From Flavobacteriales bacterium (GTDB lineage: Bacteria; Bacteroidota; Bacteroidia; CAIKAF01): DNA of 64,000 nucleotides. The stretch covers positions 238,636 to 302,635 of the forward strand of contig JAGYKD010000002.1 of the NCBI GenBank assembly GCA_018401695.1. Reading direction: 5' to 3'. A program made the translations under genes and the position numbers. This document shows positions 51,395 to 60,365 of this stretch, one piece after another (position 1 is the stretch's first letter; every line of letters begins with the position of its first letter). Under the pieces are notes generated by a model. It was not told where the DNA came from, searched no databases, and saw only the letters and a program-made list of their open reading frames with translations.

Positions 51395-51535
51395 GCTTCC
51401 TCTGGTCGCTCTTGCCTCCGCAGCGGCTGAGCAGCCCACATCGTCAGGCTAATTGGCCTGCGCCGGGGCGCGTTAAGCTCCGTGTGTATTTTTTTTGAAT
51501 GATGGCCCACAGTTGAAACCGTGGGCGGTAGTGCG
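51395..51535 (+). repeat. ~140 bp direct repeat, copy 1 (…GGTCGCTCTTGCC…CGTCAGGCTAATTGGCCTGCGCCGGGGCGCGTTAAGCTCCGTGTG…GTTGAAACCGTGGGC)
   Basis: About 85% identical to 51985-52123. Confidence 0.8.
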
Positions 51536-51595
51536 GGTGAAATCATGGGATGCGGTTGAAACCGTGGGCTGTGGTGTGGCCATTTTTAAAGGGAA

Positions 51596-51663
51596 AAATC
51601 TCTACATGGCTTTGTTTAGTTAATTGATTATCAACTGTTTTTTAAAACGAAAATCTCTACATC
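51596..51663 (+). repeat. 68 bp paired-motif element (AAAATCTCTACAT x2, 55 bp apart), copy B
   Basis: Homologous to 10442-10509, including the spacer. Confidence 0.6.
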
Positions 51664-51699
51664 CATAGTTTAAGGCAAAGAGTGCCTGCCAATCGTTCC

Positions 51700-51985
51700 C
51701 TGGCGCAGTTTAAACCGTGGGCTATGGTTTAACCATTGATAATTTCGCCGTTAAATAAACACCTGGGGATTCTATTCTTTCGAGAATTTTAAACCGTTAA
51801 AACGGTTGGCCGGACACGGCATTTCATATAGCCCACGGTTTAAACCGTGGGCTATGGTTTAACCATTGATAATTTCGCCGTTAAATAAACACCTAGGGAT
51901 TCTATTCTTTCGAGAATTTTAAACCGTTAAAACGGTTGGTCCGGACTCGGCATTTCATATAGCCCACGGTTTAAACCGTGGGCTT
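51700..51985 (+). repeat. tandem repeat, ~130 bp unit x2.2, each unit starting with perfect palindrome GCCCACGGTTTAAACCGTGGGC
   Basis: Units at about 51709-51838 and 51839-51969 differ by roughly three substitutions and one indel. A third partial unit follows. Confidence 0.85.
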
Positions 51986-52123
51986 CCTGTGGTCGCTCTT
52001 GGCCGGGCGGCTGCTGAGCACTCTATTTCGTCAGGCTAATTGGCCTGCGCCGGGGCGCGTTACGCTCCGTGTGGATTTTTTTTGAATGATGGCCCACGGT
52101 TGAAACCGTGGGCTATGATTTCA
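51985..52123 (+). repeat. ~140 bp direct repeat, copy 2
   Basis: Matches 51395-51535. Confidence 0.8.
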
Positions 52124-52465: not shown

Positions 52466-52828
52466 ATGCTTGAATTTATATTAGGATTAACATCGGACAT
52501 TATTTCAAATTCGACTTCACTATCAAAAAAAGACAAGGACACTGTCCATAATGAAGTAACGTATGCATTGAACCAGACACGGACACACATCAGAAACACC
52601 AGACAGGGGAATACAGATCAACCATCTTCTCATTTATCCAATGTTTGGCAAAGAACAGGCAGGCGACTTAGACAAATTGGGCATACCGAAGTCCAAGGTC
52701 TTGCGGACACCATTGAGCAAAAAAGCAAATACTGGTCAGACCCTACTGACTATGATTTACAGAACTTAGACCAGTATGAAATGCGACTAACCCAAGTTGA
52801 AAGTAAATTGAATGAACTCTGCTCATGA
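52466..52828 (+). CDS. hypothetical protein (120 aa)
   Basis: ORF with ATGA coupling to the next gene. No recognisable motifs. Confidence 0.4.
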   Translation: MLEFILGLTSDIISNSTSLSKKDKDTVHNEVTYALNQTRTHIRNTRQGNTDQPSSHLSNVWQRTGRRLRQIGHTEVQGLADTIEQKSKYWSDPTDYDLQNLDQYEMRLTQVESKLNELCS

Positions 52829-53649
52829 AAAGGATTATTGCTACAATATCGTTTATGTACCTTGTTTCCATACCGACAATTGCCCAAAGCGACACAGTTA
52901 CTGTTCAGAAACTGGATAAAATTGAAAAGACGTTAAATGAAATTGCTCAACAACTTACCAATCAAAAAAGTGACTCATTAATTGTCTCCGTAGAGCACTT
53001 TGAGAAGTTGACAAATAGACTTCAAAAAAATGATAGCATCTGGCCTGACATTCTTCCTTCGTTGATTGCAATTTTCGTTGTATTGATATCCACTGGCGGA
53101 GCAATCTTCATTGGAGTTAGACAGATTAGAACTCAAACGACAAATGCGGAAGAGCAAATTAGAAGCCAAGAAGCGCAAGCACAAGATAACCTTCAGGTTG
53201 CTCGAGAACAAATTCAAGAGACATCGAGAATGACCTTGGCACAAGTAAGGGCAAACAATATTTCACAAGCACGAATTAACTGGATACAGGATTTAAGAAA
53301 TGAACTGAGTCAGTTTAATGGAGAAGTCGCAATAATTAACTTTTATCTTCATGATGTGGTGGAGTTGACAAAAGAGGGAAATAAGAAAAAAGCAGAAGAA
53401 TTATACAATCAACAAGTTGAGAGGATAAAAACCGCAAGACAATTAGCATTCAAAATCAAACTTTTTCTGAACAAAGGCGAAACAGACCATAAGAAACTTG
53501 AAGTTTTAATTAACGACTACTACACTTCCGCTCTTGAAACCTTTTCAAAAGTGAAGTCCGACTTTAATAAAGTAAGCAATGACATTCTGGATATTTCAAG
53601 AAAAATACTTAAAGACGCATGGGAACAGGCAAAAAATGAAGGAACATAA
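52825..53649 (+). CDS. hypothetical membrane-anchored coiled-coil protein (274 aa)
   Basis: N-terminal signal-like segment, one internal TM helix (LPSLIAIFVVLISTGGAIFIGV) and long heptad-like Q/E/K-rich stretches. Confidence 0.45.
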   Translation: MKRIIATISFMYLVSIPTIAQSDTVTVQKLDKIEKTLNEIAQQLTNQKSDSLIVSVEHFEKLTNRLQKNDSIWPDILPSLIAIFVVLISTGGAIFIGVRQIRTQTTNAEEQIRSQEAQAQDNLQVAREQIQETSRMTLAQVRANNISQARINWIQDLRNELSQFNGEVAIINFYLHDVVELTKEGNKKKAEELYNQQVERIKTARQLAFKIKLFLNKGETDHKKLEVLINDYYTSALETFSKVKSDFNKVSNDILDISRKILKDAWEQAKNEGT

Positions 53650-53894
53650 AGAACAAAAAGCACGATGCCCCAACAGCGCATATAGCTTATGGCGGGTGAC
53701 GGGATAAATTCAAGGTTTTCGGCACGTAGCAAAGTTTGTCATTGGGGACAGTTAAGTGCTCTAAAAACCGCCACAAGCCATATGCGCAAAACGTTAGCGT
53801 TCATTAGTGTGACGAGTTAACAGCGAAATTATACTTTTGACGGAGCGGTTTCCGAAAGGCCAAACGAGTAGTAATAATTAAAAAACAAAAAAAT

Positions 53895-54383
53895 ATGACA
53901 AAGAACAAGTCAATACCCATTTTGCTCCTCACAGCAGGAGTTCTTTGGGCGGGCCTCACACAAGCTCAGGAATCTGCCAATGCCTCCGGTGGTGATGCTA
54001 CAGGAAGCGGAGGTACTGTTGCTTACAGCGTTGGACAAGTGCTTTACACCTCCAATACAGGAAGCGGAGGAACTGTTGACCAAGGCGTGCAACATGCCTA
54101 CGAAATTTTCACGGTTGGTATAAAGAAAACAGAACTTAACATTTCGCTCACCGTATTTCCGAACCCAACAACAGAAAATTTAACCTTGCAAATAAGCGAT
54201 TACACCAACGAAAAGTTGTCGTATCAGTTATTTGATATGCAGGGAAAACAACTAAGCAAAGGGCAAATAGTAGCACAGCAAACACAAATAAACATTAATG
54301 GTCTGCCCTCCGCTACTTACTTCATTCATGTTGTAAACCAAGAAGACAAAAAAGTTCAATCATTCAAAATCATCAAAAACTAA
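53895..54383 (+). CDS. small secreted protein with T9SS C-terminal sorting domain
   Basis: Signal peptide. C-terminal …LTVFPNPTTENLTLQI…YFIHVVNQEDKKVQSFKIIKN. Confidence 0.6.
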   Translation: MTKNKSIPILLLTAGVLWAGLTQAQESANASGGDATGSGGTVAYSVGQVLYTSNTGSGGTVDQGVQHAYEIFTVGIKKTELNISLTVFPNPTTENLTLQISDYTNEKLSYQLFDMQGKQLSKGQIVAQQTQININGLPSATYFIHVVNQEDKKVQSFKIIKN

Positions 54384-54389
54384 ATAATC

Positions 54390-55274
54390 ATGAAAAGGAT
54401 AATTTCAATATGTGCAGCATTACTAATGACAGCAAGCGTGTTTGCCCAAGCACCCGAGAAAATAAGCTATCAAGCAGTTGTGCGTGACGGAAGTAATACT
54501 TTAGTTACGTCCTCCGCAGTAGGTATGCAAATAAGCATTTTACAAGGTTCATCAAGTGGAACGGCAGTGTACGTAGAAACGCAAACACCTACTTCTAATG
54601 CCAATGGTTTGGTAAGCATTGAAATTGGAGCAGGAACAATTGTAAGCGGGGGCTTTACCGCTATTGACTGGGCAAATGGACCGTATTTTATTAAAACAGA
54701 AACCGATCCGACAGGAGGGACAAATTACACCATTACAGGTATAAGCCAACTTTTAAGTGTGCCTTATGCCTTACATGCGAAAACGGCAGAAACAGTGTCA
54801 GGAGGAAAGGATTTTTATTTAGGACAAGATACGCTTGGTGGTATTGTATTTTATATTTATTTGGATGCGAATGGAGTACAACGTGGACTTATTTTAAATA
54901 AAAACGAAAGTACGGCACAATGGCAAGGCACCGGCACAACAACCAATGCTACACGCAGTTGGGATGGTGCTTACAATACAGGGTTAATGGCAAATAGCCC
55001 TGCTGCTAATTATGTGAATAGTTTAACAGATGGTGGATTTACAGACTGGTATTTACCTTCAGTTGACGAGTTAAGTATTTTATGGAACAACCGCTTTCAC
55101 GCTAATAATGCCCTAAATGCTGGAGGCTATACATTATTGTCAAGCGGCGCTTCCTATTGGAGTAGTACAGAGGGTAGTGCGGCGATCGCATTCCGCTTCG
55201 CCTTCAACGACGGTTACGCACTTAACACCAATAAGATTAATATTCATAGCGTGCGTGCCGTTCGGGCATTTTAA
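54390..55274 (+). CDS. secreted DUF1566 (Lcl C-terminal-like) domain protein
   Basis: Signal peptide and a …TDWYLPSVDELSILWNN… motif typical of DUF1566. Confidence 0.5.
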   Translation: MKRIISICAALLMTASVFAQAPEKISYQAVVRDGSNTLVTSSAVGMQISILQGSSSGTAVYVETQTPTSNANGLVSIEIGAGTIVSGGFTAIDWANGPYFIKTETDPTGGTNYTITGISQLLSVPYALHAKTAETVSGGKDFYLGQDTLGGIVFYIYLDANGVQRGLILNKNESTAQWQGTGTTTNATRSWDGAYNTGLMANSPAANYVNSLTDGGFTDWYLPSVDELSILWNNRFHANNALNAGGYTLLSSGASYWSSTEGSAAIAFRFAFNDGYALNTNKINIHSVRAVRAF

Positions 55275-56184: not shown

Positions 56185-57111
56185 ATGAACAAAGGTGAAA
56201 TAGAAATATATAAAAGTGAAACCGGCACTGAGGTACAAGTCAAACTGGAAAAAGAAACGCTATGGCTTACCCAGAGACAAATGGCTGAGCTGTTCGAAAA
56301 AGATGCAGACACCATTGGGCTGCACCTCAAAAACATATACAGTGTTAAAGAGCTAGAGGAAAATACAACTACCGAGGATTACTCGGTAGTTCGGCCCGAA
56401 GGGAAAAGAATGGTTCGAAGAACCATCAAACACTATAACCTGGATGCCATTATATCAATAGGGTATCGAGTAAATTCCAAAAGAGGTACTCAATTCCGCA
56501 TCTGGGCTACCCAACGCTTAAAAGATTATCTGGTGCAGGGCTACGCAATCAATGAAAAACGATTGCAGCAAAAAGAGATGGAGGTGCAGCATTTGAAAAC
56601 AGGCATTCACATTTTAGGCAGAGCTATTGAGGAGAAAGCTGGAGAACAAGGGCATGAATGGCTGGTACACTACGCTAAAGGACTTGAGCTTCTAGATGAC
56701 TACGATCATGAAAATCTGGATAAACTCGGCAAGAGCAAGCAAGCAGCGGTTTATCCTGCCAAAGAAGAATACCACAAACTGATCCATCAAATGAAGATCG
56801 ATTTTGATTCAGCCCTGTTTGGGGTTGAAAAAGACCAAAGCTTTGATAGTGCCATAGCCCAAATAGCCCAAGGATTTGGCCATGAAGACATCTATCCTAC
56901 CTTAGAAGAAAAAGCGGCTATGCTGCTCTATCTTATCACCAAAAATCATGCTTTTGCCGATGGCAACAAACGCATTGCCGCAGCCTGTTTTCTTTTATTT
57001 TTAGACCGAAACCACTTACTGACGAATACCCGTAATGACCAAATTATTAGCCATGAAGCCTTGGCTAGCCTAACGCTATTTGTGGCAAGCAGTAGGCCTG
57101 AAGAAATGTAG
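56185..57111 (+). CDS. RhuM-family protein with Fic/Doc motif (HxFxDGNKR)
   Basis: The N-terminus (IEIYKSETGTEVQVKLEKETLWLTQRQMAELF) is the RhuM signature. C-terminal HAFADGNKRIAA is the Doc/Fic catalytic motif. Confidence 0.75.
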   Translation: MNKGEIEIYKSETGTEVQVKLEKETLWLTQRQMAELFEKDADTIGLHLKNIYSVKELEENTTTEDYSVVRPEGKRMVRRTIKHYNLDAIISIGYRVNSKRGTQFRIWATQRLKDYLVQGYAINEKRLQQKEMEVQHLKTGIHILGRAIEEKAGEQGHEWLVHYAKGLELLDDYDHENLDKLGKSKQAAVYPAKEEYHKLIHQMKIDFDSALFGVEKDQSFDSAIAQIAQGFGHEDIYPTLEEKAAMLLYLITKNHAFADGNKRIAAACFLLFLDRNHLLTNTRNDQIISHEALASLTLFVASSRPEEM

Positions 57112-57152: not shown

Positions 57153-57257
57153 ATGAGCAACGAATCAAGCATTGTTTCAAAAGTTTGGTGTTTCGCAAGC
57201 GTACTCCGCGACGATGTGCACTCCTCTTTCTTCGTGGCCGGTATGTATTCCTTGTGA
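57153..57257 (+). pseudogene. N-terminal stub of an HsdM-type (type I R-M) methyltransferase
   Basis: MSNESSIVSKVWCFASVLRDDVHSSFFVAGMYSL* matches the conserved HsdM N-terminal helix (…KLW.FCN.LRDDGV…). It is truncated after 34 aa. Confidence 0.4.
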
Positions 57258-57500: not shown

Positions 57501-57830
57501 ATGAGTGAGATCAAAAATATTGTAGAAAAGCTGATTGCATTTAGAGATGAAAGAGATTGGGCTCAGTTTCATAATCCCAAAGATTTGGCCATTGCTTTAA
57601 ATATTGAGGCAGGAGAACTGCTTGAAGCATTTCTTTGGAAAGGCCCAGAAGATGCGGATATTGAAAAAGTAAAAGAAGAATTAGCCGATGTGTTTGCCTA
57701 CGCTTTTTTGATTGCCGATAAATATAAGTTTGATGTTGTCGAAATTGTTACAACAAAAATTAAAGAAAATGGGGAGAAATATCCTGTGAGTAAAGCTAAG
57801 GGATCTGCGAAGAAATATAATGAATTATGA
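57501..57830 (+). CDS. MazG-like nucleotide pyrophosphohydrolase (small all-alpha NTP-PPase)
   Basis: 109 aa. EAGELLEAFLWK and EELADVFAYAFLIA motifs. ATGA overlap with the downstream gene. Confidence 0.7.
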   Translation: MSEIKNIVEKLIAFRDERDWAQFHNPKDLAIALNIEAGELLEAFLWKGPEDADIEKVKEELADVFAYAFLIADKYKFDVVEIVTTKIKENGEKYPVSKAKGSAKKYNEL

Positions 57831-60031
57831 ATCCCATAGGCGAAATTGTTATTGACTTAAATCGATACCCTTTTTCAAAAAACGCACTTGCCGAAATTTC
57901 AGAAAATAAATGGGTTAAAACTCAATGGCCCTTGGTGTATCTAATAAAAAACGACAAAACCAAAGTGGCGTATGTTGGAGAGACGACCAATGCGTTTAAT
58001 AGAATTAAAAACCATTTTGCTAACGAAGACCGTTTGGTTCTAGATACCATTACATTAATCGGATCCGATCGTTTTAACAAGTCTGCTACCCTTGATATCG
58101 AGTCTCAACTCATTCAATATTTGTCGGCAGAAAACACCTATAAACTTCAAAATGGAAATGGTGGACTAACCCACCACAATTACTACGAAAAGCCTTTCTA
58201 TCGAGATATTTTCAAAGAGATATGGGCACGACTAAAGAGTGAAAAATTAGTTAGCAAGTCGCTAGAGGAAATCGAAAATTCGGATTTGTTTAAATACTCT
58301 CCCTACAAAGCGCTTTCCGATGATCAAAGAGCCTCAGTAATGAAGATTATTCATACGCTAAACAACCAGAACCATCCGAGTATTTTTGTGGAAGGTAGTG
58401 CGGGAACTGGTAAGACCATTCTTGCAACTTACTTGATGAAGCTTTTACATTCACCTCTGCCAGCTGCTGACGAGATAGAAGATTTAGAAGGATACCGTTT
58501 GGAGGAGTATCGATTGCTTGAATTATTTCGCCAAAAGTTTAAAGATGCAACTATTGGTTTGGTTGTGCCTATGACCTCCTTACGCAAAAGTCTTAAAACT
58601 GTATTTGGTGCAATTGGTGGGCTTAAAAGGAGTATGGTTATTGGTCCTTCGGATGCGGTTGAAAAAGAATACGACATCCTAATTGTTGATGAAGCTCATC
58701 GGTTAGCTCAACGTAAAAATATTCCGAATTATGGGTCTTTTGATGCCATAAACCGCTCCTTGGGATTAGGAATTGAAGGCACTCAGCTTGATTGGATAAT
58801 CCGAAGTAGTAAGCACCAGATATTTTTTTACGATGAAGCGCAATCGATTAAGCCCTCCGATATCCCTAAGGAAAGGTTTAACGAATTAAAACGCCAATCA
58901 GCAAAACCCATCAAGCTTACTTCTCAAATGCGGGTTTCGGCGGGTTCCGACTATATCAATTTTGTAGACCGCTTGTTGAAATGTCAACCTCTCGATGATT
59001 TGACCATTCCCGAGAATTATGACTTTAGGTTGTTTACATCTTTCAAAGAATTTCATAATGAGATTATTATTAAAGAAAATGAACTGGGATTGAGTCGCCT
59101 CATTGCCGGGTATTCGTGGCCTTGGATTTCAAAAAGCGATAAAAGCTTGTATGACATTGAAATCGAAGGGACGAAATTGCAATGGAACAAGGTGAACGTA
59201 GATTGGATTAACTCCGCCGATCCGAAAGTGGAAGTAGGTTGTATTCATACTACGCAAGGGTATGACTTAAACTATGCCGGGATTATCTTTGGCAAAGAAA
59301 TAACCTACAATAAAAAACTGAATCGAATAGAAATTATCAGAAAAAACTACCACGATAGAAATGGAAGCGCAGGGATTAATGATGATGAGCGTTTGAAAGA
59401 ATATGTTGTCAATATTTATAAGACCATTATGTATCGGGGGATTAAAGGAACTTTGGTTTATGCTTGCAATCCGGAATTAAGGGACTATTTGGCTGCTTAT
59501 ATTAAACATGAAACATGGGAAAGAGGCGCAACCTCTGTAGAAAAAGAATCATTTTTTAGAGTCTTGGATTTCGAAAAGGTGCTGCCTTACCAAAACGCAA
59601 TTCCCTTGGTTGATATACAAGCCGCTGCAGGAAATTTTAGCGAAAACCAACAGCATTCGGAATTAACATGGGTTGAAATTCCCGATGGATTAAGGGTGAG
59701 TGAAGGCGATTTTATTTGCCAAGTTATTGGCGAATCCATGAATAAACGCATTCCAAATGGATCTTTTTGCCTATTCAAACCATATTCGGGTGGATCACGA
59801 AATGGTAAAATCGTATTAGTTGAGTCAACTAGTATACAAGATTCAGAATTTGGTTCAGGATATACGGTAAAAGAATACCACAGCATAAAAAAAAATTCTG
59901 ATAGCGGTTGGAGTCATGAGTCAATTGTATTAAAACCGCTATCGACTGATGGAGAATACTCAAATATTGTTTTACAAAAAGATGAATTGGTGGATTTTAG
60001 GGTTGTCGGAGTATTCGAGAGAGTAATCTAA
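57827..60031 (+). CDS. GIY-YIG nuclease-like / Schlafen-like (DUF2075) P-loop ATPase with C-terminal LexA-type S24 autopeptidase domain
   Basis: N-terminal VYLIKN…AYVGETTN…R..NH (GIY-YIG). Walker A at GSAGTGKT and a DEAH box at ILIVDEAHRL. C-terminal PLVDIQAAAGNF (Ala-Gly site), GESM (Ser) and TVKEY (Lys) in LexA/UmuD spacing. Confidence 0.7.
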   Translation: MNPIGEIVIDLNRYPFSKNALAEISENKWVKTQWPLVYLIKNDKTKVAYVGETTNAFNRIKNHFANEDRLVLDTITLIGSDRFNKSATLDIESQLIQYLSAENTYKLQNGNGGLTHHNYYEKPFYRDIFKEIWARLKSEKLVSKSLEEIENSDLFKYSPYKALSDDQRASVMKIIHTLNNQNHPSIFVEGSAGTGKTILATYLMKLLHSPLPAADEIEDLEGYRLEEYRLLELFRQKFKDATIGLVVPMTSLRKSLKTVFGAIGGLKRSMVIGPSDAVEKEYDILIVDEAHRLAQRKNIPNYGSFDAINRSLGLGIEGTQLDWIIRSSKHQIFFYDEAQSIKPSDIPKERFNELKRQSAKPIKLTSQMRVSAGSDYINFVDRLLKCQPLDDLTIPENYDFRLFTSFKEFHNEIIIKENELGLSRLIAGYSWPWISKSDKSLYDIEIEGTKLQWNKVNVDWINSADPKVEVGCIHTTQGYDLNYAGIIFGKEITYNKKLNRIEIIRKNYHDRNGSAGINDDERLKEYVVNIYKTIMYRGIKGTLVYACNPELRDYLAAYIKHETWERGATSVEKESFFRVLDFEKVLPYQNAIPLVDIQAAAGNFSENQQHSELTWVEIPDGLRVSEGDFICQVIGESMNKRIPNGSFCLFKPYSGGSRNGKIVLVESTSIQDSEFGSGYTVKEYHSIKKNSDSGWSHESIVLKPLSTDGEYSNIVLQKDELVDFRVVGVFERVI

Positions 60032-60216
60032 TTGCTATTTAATAGCCAAAAACCTTTTGTTCTAACCCAATGGCCTTTAGTGGCCAGCCAAAACGGGACA
60101 ACAAACACCAAGTGCATAAATTTGAGACAAATTCAAGCACTAAAGAACTTTGAATTTGGGCTTTAACCTGAGAGAATGGCTAAGTCCATTCCATTACTCG
60201 GCCAACAAACCCTAGG

Positions 60217-60365
60217 CCACGGTTGAAACCGTGGGCTATGTGAAATGCCGAGGCAGGGCCAACCGTTTTAACGGTTTAAAAATCTTGAAAAAAGGAATCC
60301 CCGCGGTTTTGTTTAATTGCCAAATCATCCATGGTTAAACCATAGCCCCAGGTTTCAACGGCGTT
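60217..60365 (-). repeat. inverted copy of the 130 bp repeat unit plus CCACGGTTGAAACCGTGGG palindrome
   Basis: The reverse complement aligns with 51709-51838 over most of its length. Additional CCACGG/CCGTGG palindromes lie at 60395-60480. Confidence 0.75.

Follow-up and report, generated by a model that had tools for sequence, protein, structure and literature searches.

The window that we analysed is a stretch of 64,000 nucleotides on contig JAGYKD010000002.1 from a Flavobacteriales bacterium (assembly GCA_018401695.1). At positions 57,501 to 60,031 it carries a 2.5-kb module of two coupled genes, which encode a small MazG-like nucleoside triphosphate (NTP) pyrophosphohydrolase and a 734-residue protein uniting a GIY-YIG nuclease domain, a superfamily 1 (SF1) helicase core of the DUF2075 or Schlafen-group-3 type, and a C-terminal S24 domain of the kind found in LexA and UmuD. 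As far as sequence, alignment register and predicted fold can show, our analysis confirms that the S24 domain is a complete LexA-type self-cleavage module. We read the pair as a horizontally mobile conflict module, most likely directed against phages, in which the S24 domain would serve as a switch responsive to RecA*, the filament of RecA on single-stranded DNA (ssDNA). To this reading as a whole we assign a probability of about 0.45. The pair and its parts are laid out in the window as follows:

57501-57830, forward strand: gene for the MazG-like NTP pyrophosphohydrolase, all-alpha and of the DCTPP1/RS21-C6 type, 109 residues (PF12643 and PDB matches).
57827-60031, forward strand: gene for the GIY-YIG / DUF2075 SF1 helicase / S24 protein, 734 residues (open reading frame and Pfam).
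57827-57830, forward strand: ATGA overlap, comprising the start of the large gene and the stop of the MazG-like gene (read in the sequence).
57914-58171, forward strand: GIY-YIG nuclease domain, residues ~30-115 (PF01541, N-terminal profile and invariant residues).
58382-59467, forward strand: SF1 helicase core of the DUF2075 / Schlafen-group-3 type, residues 186-547 (PF09848 and Foldseek).
58394-58417, forward strand: Walker A motif GSAGTGKT, residues 190-197 (motif reading).
58685-58699, forward strand: Walker B motif VDEAH, residues 287-291 (motif reading).
59504-59596, forward strand: linker between helicase and S24 domain, residues 560-590 (low model confidence; natural relatives without S24 stop here).
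59597-60028, forward strand: S24 self-cleavage domain of the LexA/UmuD type, residues 591-734 (Pfam, profile, hhalign and predicted fold).
59627-59632, forward strand: predicted scissile bond, Ala601-Gly602 (aligned to Ala84-Gly85 of LexA).
59735-59737, forward strand: Ser637, the predicted nucleophile, in GESM at residues 635-638 (aligned to Ser119 of LexA).
59870-59872, forward strand: Lys682, the predicted general base, in TVKEY at residues 680-684 (aligned to Lys156 of LexA).

Pfam recognised the S24 domain in the single sequence (Peptidase_S24, PF00717, residues 593-686) with a score of 26.7 bits, the cut-off being 23.3. Since such single-sequence evidence is thin, the case for S24 is carried by the family profile and by the predicted fold. 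A profile built on an alignment of 49 C-terminal domains, including relatives that share 20-38% identity within the domain, retrieved LexA structures from the PDB, both crystal and cryo-EM, with E-values between 5.6e-9 and 1e-7; UmuD followed with E=4e-5. When the domain was aligned with E. coli LexA using hhalign (97.5% probability), all three elements fell in register, with AAAG placed on Ala84-Gly85, GESM on Ser119 and TVKEY on Lys156. The scissile-site motif, LVDIQAAAGNFS, occupies residues 594-605 of the 734-residue protein. Ser637, Met638 and Lys682 were invariant in all 49 sequences, and the scissile Ala and Gly were conserved in at least 90% of them; distant relatives have Cys-Gly at this site, as does UmuD. 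Gly602 and Ser637 lie 35 residues apart, compared with 34 in LexA, and the longer distance from Ser637 to Lys682 (45 residues versus 37 in LexA) is due to an 8-residue insertion.

The predicted structure agreed with this assignment. An AlphaFold model of residues 576-734, with a predicted local distance difference test (pLDDT) of 80.5 and a predicted template modelling score (pTM) of 0.74, was compared with the PDB by Foldseek, and the top 34 matches were all LexA, UmuD or lambda cI. Target-normalised template modelling scores ranged from 0.62 to 0.69 against chains that hold the C-terminal domain alone, and entries 8trg and 8gms were among the profile and Foldseek matches. In the model of the full-length protein, also with a pLDDT of 80.5, the values fell below 50 at residues 563-575 of the linker and at residues 599-611 of the cleavage loop. 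For the loop, low confidence of the model is expected of a mobile LexA-type cleavage-site region.

An earlier note on this DNA, made from the sequence alone, had claimed a protein of these three domains, coupled through ATGA to the MazG-like gene and ending in an S24 domain whose Ala-Gly, Ser and Lys elements keep the order and spacing of LexA. All of this has stood: Pfam recognises the three domains, the overlap is read at 57827-57830, the module holds in Pfam, profile, hhalign and coordinates, and the modelled fold leads to LexA, UmuD and cI.

A search for the S24 domain in other architectures returned matches that all fell within this same nuclease-helicase family. We considered a free-standing S24 partner protein and rejected it. 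Database entries of about 192 residues, labelled 'S24 family peptidase' or 'SOS-response repressor LexA', proved to be pieces of broken nuclease-helicase copies: they begin at the internal Met535 and stem from frameshifted or partly called copies of the large gene (L095 4385-6579; L094 4405-6573; P0409, P0496). These entries are an annotation artefact and at the same time a sign of frequent gene decay.

The remaining domains of the operon were assigned in the same manner. The GIY-YIG match (PF01541, residues 36-68) scored 24.4 bits against a cut-off of 22.6 and covers the first half of the domain only, but a profile of the N-terminal region matched the catalytic domain of I-TevI (1mk0, E=8e-4) and UvrC (E=6.5e-3). 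The GIY-YIG catalytic set Y38, Y49, R59, H63, E92 and N109 was invariant in 20 sequences, including Bacillota relatives of 32% identity, and the first four of these residues match the corresponding positions of I-TevI. The N-terminus of the 734-residue protein was also matched, weakly and in part, by PDC-S14 of PADLOC. SLFN-g3_helicase (PF09848) covers residues 186-547 at E=1.7e-56; Foldseek matched this core with Upf1, SLFN11 (7zel), nsp13, RecD2 and Dna2, and the residues of Walker A, Walker B and the later helicase motifs were invariant in 57 sequences. The N-terminal RNase domain of Schlafen proteins (AlbA_2-type) had no Pfam match in the 734-residue protein, so that the group-3 helicase domain alone is held in common. 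On the 109-residue protein, the MazG-like family PF12643 scored 68.7 bits against a cut-off of 27, and the PDB matches included the pyrophosphatase 4qgp (9e-17) and DCTPP1 (1.9e-16). Its metal-binding EXXE...EXXD residues (E36, E39, E60 and D63) were invariant in 82 partner genes, including those of Bacillota. NCBIfam has no specific model. Because the catalytic residues are invariant in the GIY-YIG, helicase, MazG-like and S24 alignments, the catalytic centres of all four domains look intact, as judged from these alignments.

The association of the two genes is itself conserved. Among 80 genome loci that we retrieved, the MazG-like gene stood directly upstream of the nuclease-helicase gene in 79, and 70 of the 80 shared the identical 4-nt ATGA overlap. 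The pair were the only genes conserved throughout; the flanks varied, and no third universally conserved gene was found across the 80 loci. More than 110 full-length relatives share at least 55% identity with the protein of the window, and relatives are encoded at no fewer than 574 genome loci. Most of these belong to Bacteroidota, among them Marivirga, Indibacter, Flavobacterium, Pedobacter, Kordia and Balneola. Two metagenome-assembled genomes (MAGs) of Gammaproteobacteria also carry relatives (L078, L079), and Bacillota have versions of the pair at 26-35% identity. Broken copies of the nuclease-helicase gene were frequent. In phage databases, relatives occurred in 4 of 50,697 phage records and on 2 IMG/VR contigs, all of them without S24. 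A phage origin of the family was therefore rejected, the family being nearly absent from phage records.

At 13-17 of the 80 loci, an additional gene lies 0-6 nt from the MazG gene. It encodes a protein of 556-664 residues with N-terminal tetratricopeptide (TPR) repeats and a C-terminal half without domain assignment, and is preceded by a 105-residue gene of the XRE type with a helix-turn-helix (HTH) motif (L015 1055-3028, L002 733-1050, L010, L024, L027, L034, L036, L049, L053, L063, L077). The TPR protein does not occur in the window. These loci may represent an optional four-gene form of the operon. A different arrangement was seen on a 1.8-Mb replicon of Halomonas sp. PA16-9 (L092 5001-7097), where a frameshifted, S24-bearing DUF2075 relative, apparently lacking GIY-YIG, has its MazG-like gene downstream instead of upstream; this is a rearranged or decaying gammaproteobacterial version.

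Most relatives of the large protein end without S24. They are GIY-YIG-DUF2075 proteins of 560-590 residues, and S24 was present in about 15-19 of the best 150 representatives from a library clustered at 50% identity. One Bacteroidota protein that is 86% identical to that of the window lacks S24 and keeps its coupled MazG gene. Similarly, pairs without S24 and with a coupled MazG gene reside on plasmids of B. thuringiensis, B. mycoides and L. plantarum, and two other Bacillota plasmids carry an S24-less relative with no MazG gene. As the S24-less relatives keep MazG, the conserved system consists of the MazG-like protein and the GIY-YIG-DUF2075 protein, to which S24 is an add-on. Thus, S24 is an accessory module and not a defining part of the system.

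S24-less proteins fall into at least five lineages nested among S24-bearing close relatives. One of them (P0042) is 90.5% identical to an S24-bearing protein and 82.9% identical to the nearest protein without S24. All stop within the linker, around residues 558-582, and the DNA that follows contains no remnant of S24. By this pattern of sequence identities, S24 has been lost repeatedly, at least five times among close relatives.

On the same GIY-YIG-DUF2075 core, proteins P0259 and P0255 bear a second, canonical LexA-like S24 subtype, with a Cys-Gly or Ala-Gly site and without the insertions of the S24 domain in the window. The core of P0259 is 46% identical to that of the window protein; its S24 domain shares 34% identity with E. 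coli LexA (E=4e-16) and matched the S24 domain of the window at only E=0.02. The occurrence of two S24 subtypes on one core indicates that, on the evidence of these sequences, S24 was acquired at least twice or was replaced, and hence that the combination has been under selection. The second subtype provides the best sign, albeit an indirect one drawn from sequence comparison, that joining S24 to this effector is selected.

Because the catalytic residues are invariant across both subtypes, self-cleavage of the S24 domain, predicted by analogy with LexA, is likely. The domain might instead serve only for dimerisation or for docking on the RecA filament, targeting the nuclease to RecA-coated ssDNA, with self-cleavage absent or incidental. 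LexA-family C-terminal domains do dimerise and bind the groove of the RecA filament, phage P1 Ref is a RecA-dependent nuclease, and a few members of the present family lack the scissile-bond Gly. However, the catalytic Ser and Lys never vary, and more than 90% of sequences have Ala-Gly or Cys-Gly at the scissile site. This holds for widely diverged members and also for the subtype that was acquired independently. Such conservation would be unexpected were catalysis irrelevant, and we therefore regard a purely structural S24 domain as very improbable.

The losses bear on a different matter, the direction of the switch. Repeated loss of S24 means that the core is viable by itself. This speaks against a lethal effector restrained by S24 alone and weakens the idea that cleavage releases such an effector. 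The losses also keep alive the opposite arrangement, in which the core would be constitutively competent, as that of the S24-less relatives must be, and RecA*-induced self-cleavage would inactivate the nuclease-helicase, sparing the gapped host chromosome during SOS repair. The cut would then monomerise the enzyme and expose a C-terminus ending in AAA, which resembles the VAA of the LexA ClpXP degron. The abundance of S24-less forms, derived time and again from S24-bearing ancestors, shows that a free core is tolerated, and in LexA and cI cleavage means loss of function, as the N-terminal domain is parted from the dimerising C-terminal domain. The new C-terminus would read QAAA, or VAA in several relatives, and the corresponding LexA fragment is reportedly recognised by ClpXP. 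Yet, as UmuD demonstrates, activation is another possible outcome of S24 cleavage, and a shut-off triggered by RecA* would disarm the cell just when many phages make ssDNA. We consider inactivation by cleavage rather unlikely. As to the direction of the switch, licensing or recruitment of the enzyme at RecA*-ssDNA seems to us slightly more likely than shut-off.

For a conflict module switched by RecA*, the following course of events may be envisaged. The core nuclease-helicase would follow the same logic as Nhi and AbiO, which degrade replicating phage DNA. In the lineage represented by the window, this enzyme has gained its C-terminal LexA-type S24 domain, which would dimerise it and bind RecA-ssDNA filaments. 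On ssDNA laid bare by replicating phage or by DNA damage, RecA* would form and stimulate an intramolecular cut at Ala601-Gly602 by the Ser637/Lys682 dyad. The cut would irreversibly part the catalytic 601 residues from S24 and alter the activity state of the enzyme post-translationally, without a transcription step. In parallel, the pyrophosphatase would act on the nucleotide pool, either depleting deoxynucleoside triphosphates (dNTPs) or destroying phage-specific modified dNTPs. That RecA* would be the trigger of cleavage, as it is for LexA, we hold to be slightly better than an even chance. Docking on RecA filaments would be a third role of S24, compatible with the others, for which P1 Ref and SLFN11 serve as analogies. 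A more detailed version, in which the effector itself reads the RecA* alarm post-translationally, S24 cutting the enzyme free or docking it within seconds and without the transcriptional SOS response, S24 having been recruited to this end at least twice and a dedicated DCTPP1-like partner editing the dNTP pool, is offered tentatively and is somewhat doubtful in all its parts together.

The closest characterised proteins support a role of this kind. Nhi (S. epidermidis SERP2475), the Nhi-like protein (Millman et al. 2022) and lactococcal AbiO, all of them either validated or classical in defence, consist of a nuclease and a DUF2075 helicase of the SF1B type, the nuclease being of the PD-(D/E)xK type. 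Like them, the protein of the window has an N-terminal nuclease fused to an SF1 helicase of the DUF2075 or Schlafen-group-3 type, and both kinds are found in defence islands and on plasmids. Unlike them, it has a GIY-YIG nuclease and a translationally coupled MazG-like partner, whereas Nhi and AbiO act as single proteins. Its tail is an S24 domain and that of Nhi is a poorly conserved glyoxalase-like region. The similarity to Nhi detected by PADLOC is partial, with E=1.7e-11 over about 120 residues (280-399), and the AbiO model matched at 4.8e-10; both matches lie within residues ~280-410 of the helicase. The earlier note knew of no named defence system with this architecture, and we found none either: PADLOC models gave no matching named system for the pair, and our literature searches turned up no description of a MazG-DUF2075 pairing or of an S24 fusion to such an effector. 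The system is thus probably an uncharacterised variant of the Nhi/AbiO-type nuclease-helicases with a MazG partner, as far as domain composition can tell, and by the same analogy a defence role of the pair is probable.

Other relatives shed light on the individual parts. With LexA, UmuD and lambda cI the S24 domain shares the fold, the Ser-Lys dyad and an upstream Ala-Gly (Cys-Gly in relatives) at LexA-like spacing. The cargo is different: LexA and cI carry an HTH DNA-binding domain and UmuD a 24-residue peptide, whereas here it is a 600-residue nuclease-helicase. In addition to the 8-residue insertion before the Lys strand, the S24 domain of the window has a second insertion after it, and no HTH is present. 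The MazG-like protein matches DCTPP1/RS21-C6 over its whole length (E ~1e-16) and shares the EXXE...EXXD residues, but it is a minimal form of 109 residues, coupled in an operon to a nuclease-helicase. A 2026 study, DefensePredictor, lists MazG as a predicted, never validated defence domain (PMC13092281).

Human SLFN11 has a homologous helicase domain (PF09848; Foldseek match 7zel), in contrast to the Schlafen N-terminal RNase, with which papers on bacterial Schlafen proteins are concerned and which the window protein lacks. When replication forks are under stress, SLFN11 is drawn to the ssDNA there. The link of the window protein to DNA damage would run through RecA* and S24 and not through RPA, so that the parallel is one of analogy only. 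Finally, in CapH/CapP- and LexA-type control, proteolysis upon DNA damage or ssDNA switches on immunity. In those systems it is a transcriptional repressor that is cut to induce expression, whereas in the window protein effector and protease module form one chain; control would therefore be post-translational and single-turnover.

The genomic setting of the pair was the next line of evidence. The pair has a GC content of 0.377 and the island around it (~52.1-60.2 kb) one of 0.396, compared with 0.476 in the rest of the window. Directly upstream of the pair lies a gene that matches a candidate defence family:

56185-57111, forward strand: gene for a RhuM + Fic/Doc protein, 308 residues (Pfam and PADLOC).

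This protein matched the candidate defence family PDC-S23 of PADLOC from end to end (E=3e-120), and RhuM-Fic genes adjoin the pair in about 6 of the 80 other loci (e.g., L023 9238-10239). Elsewhere, the flanks included Thoeris ThsA/ThsB and a Gp49/HTH toxin-antitoxin pair, an integrase and Fic, and a phospholipase D (PLD)-helicase-DUF3427 enzyme with HNH and AbiEi. The 141 nearest neighbours include LmuB, PD-Lambda-2_B, RmrA/CapP-like (M78) peptidases, SoFic, PDC-S41, HNH and Vsr. Taken together, the low GC content, the variable and defence-rich flanks and the near-absence from phage genomes fit a mobile defence gene better than housekeeping repair.

Repair deserves consideration nonetheless. 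The pair might be an accessory, SOS-linked cassette for DNA repair and nucleotide sanitation. The large protein would combine an SF1 helicase with a GIY-YIG nuclease that makes incisions in the manner of UvrC or Cho, and RecA* would activate it in the style of UmuD; the pyrophosphatase would clear damaged dNTPs. GIY-YIG is indeed the fold of the UvrC nuclease, DCTPP1-type enzymes are house-cleaning enzymes, S24 would tie the protein to RecA*, and the genes reside on chromosomes and hardly ever occur in phages. Such a cassette is hard to reconcile with a patchy distribution, with a low-GC island whose variable flanks are rich in defence and toxin-antitoxin genes, and with the frequent pseudogenes. 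Moreover, the pair has crossed phyla, as witnessed by the two gammaproteobacterial MAGs, and the nearest characterised architectures, those of Nhi and AbiO, belong to defence proteins. A repair function in place of defence therefore seems distinctly improbable.

The claim of an AT-rich island with Fic/Doc and restriction-modification remnants proved correct in part: the low GC content and the RhuM-Fic/Doc gene are there, but restriction-modification remnants were not confirmed. Fragmentary open reading frames at 55.4-55.9 kb, 57.15 kb and 60.3-60.6 kb had no Pfam match. The label may have come from a short open reading frame at 57153-57254 on the forward strand (MSNESSIVSKVWCFASVLRDD...). Its peptide, which we take to resemble the N-terminus of a type I HsdM methylase, a likeness that is unconfirmed, had no Pfam match and no match in ~1.2 Mb of related loci.

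Several other observations concern the island itself. Palindromic elements resembling repetitive extragenic palindromes (REP) or miniature inverted-repeat transposable elements (MITE) bracket the low-GC region, at 51395-52123 and 60207-60363. Within the window, the hairpin GCCCACGGTT(T/G)AAACCGTGGGC occurs only at 51505, 51831, 51962, 52092 and 60215, whereas chance alone would give none. The clusters are mutually inverted, with arms of 97 nt (51888-51984 and 60214-60310) that are 82% complementary, and they may mark an insertion hot spot or the boundaries of the island. The island is not marked by any tRNA, integrase or Rfam element, and scans for promoters and terminators performed no better than on shuffled sequence. 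At 52466-55274 on the forward strand, the island contains two ATGA-coupled open reading frames of 120 and 274 residues, the second with a weak PilB3_C match, and the same stretch encodes two proteins bearing Por_Secre_tail and Lcl_C domains, probably surface proteins or cargo of the type IX secretion system (T9SS). At 52823 and 54388, two starts share an almost identical context, TCATGAAAAGGAT(T/A)ATT.

A number of points speak against a mobile anti-phage module switched by RecA*. S24 is dispensable, having been lost in at least five lineages and being absent from most of the wider family, so that it is not the sole control on the nuclease. The single-sequence Pfam score of S24 exceeds its cut-off by only 3.4 bits, and a phmmer search of the PDB with the S24 region alone gave no relevant match. 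In two members (L045, L063), Ala-Ser or Ala-Thr replaces the Ala-Gly of the scissile site. The inter-domain layout of the full-length AlphaFold model is uncertain (pTM 0.58). The PADLOC models of Nhi and AbiO match weakly and over part of the protein. Lastly, the neighbourhood of defence genes, a plain tally over the loci, is no more than suggestive.

In conclusion, if the S24 domain self-cleaves upon encountering RecA*, this would be the first case that we could find of a LexA/UmuD switch that directly controls an immune effector enzyme, the known targets being repressors and a subunit of a polymerase. It would represent a new and very fast coupling of the ssDNA alarm to a nuclease in bacteria, and for the first time MazG-type pyrophosphatases would have a definite function within an operon for defence. 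Bacteroidota commonly carry the system, which is encoded at 574 or more genome loci, and the defence biology of this phylum is, to our knowledge, poorly explored. Furthermore, the parallel with SLFN11, which has the same type of helicase and gathers on ssDNA at damaged forks, would extend the list of immune logic shared between bacteria and animals.

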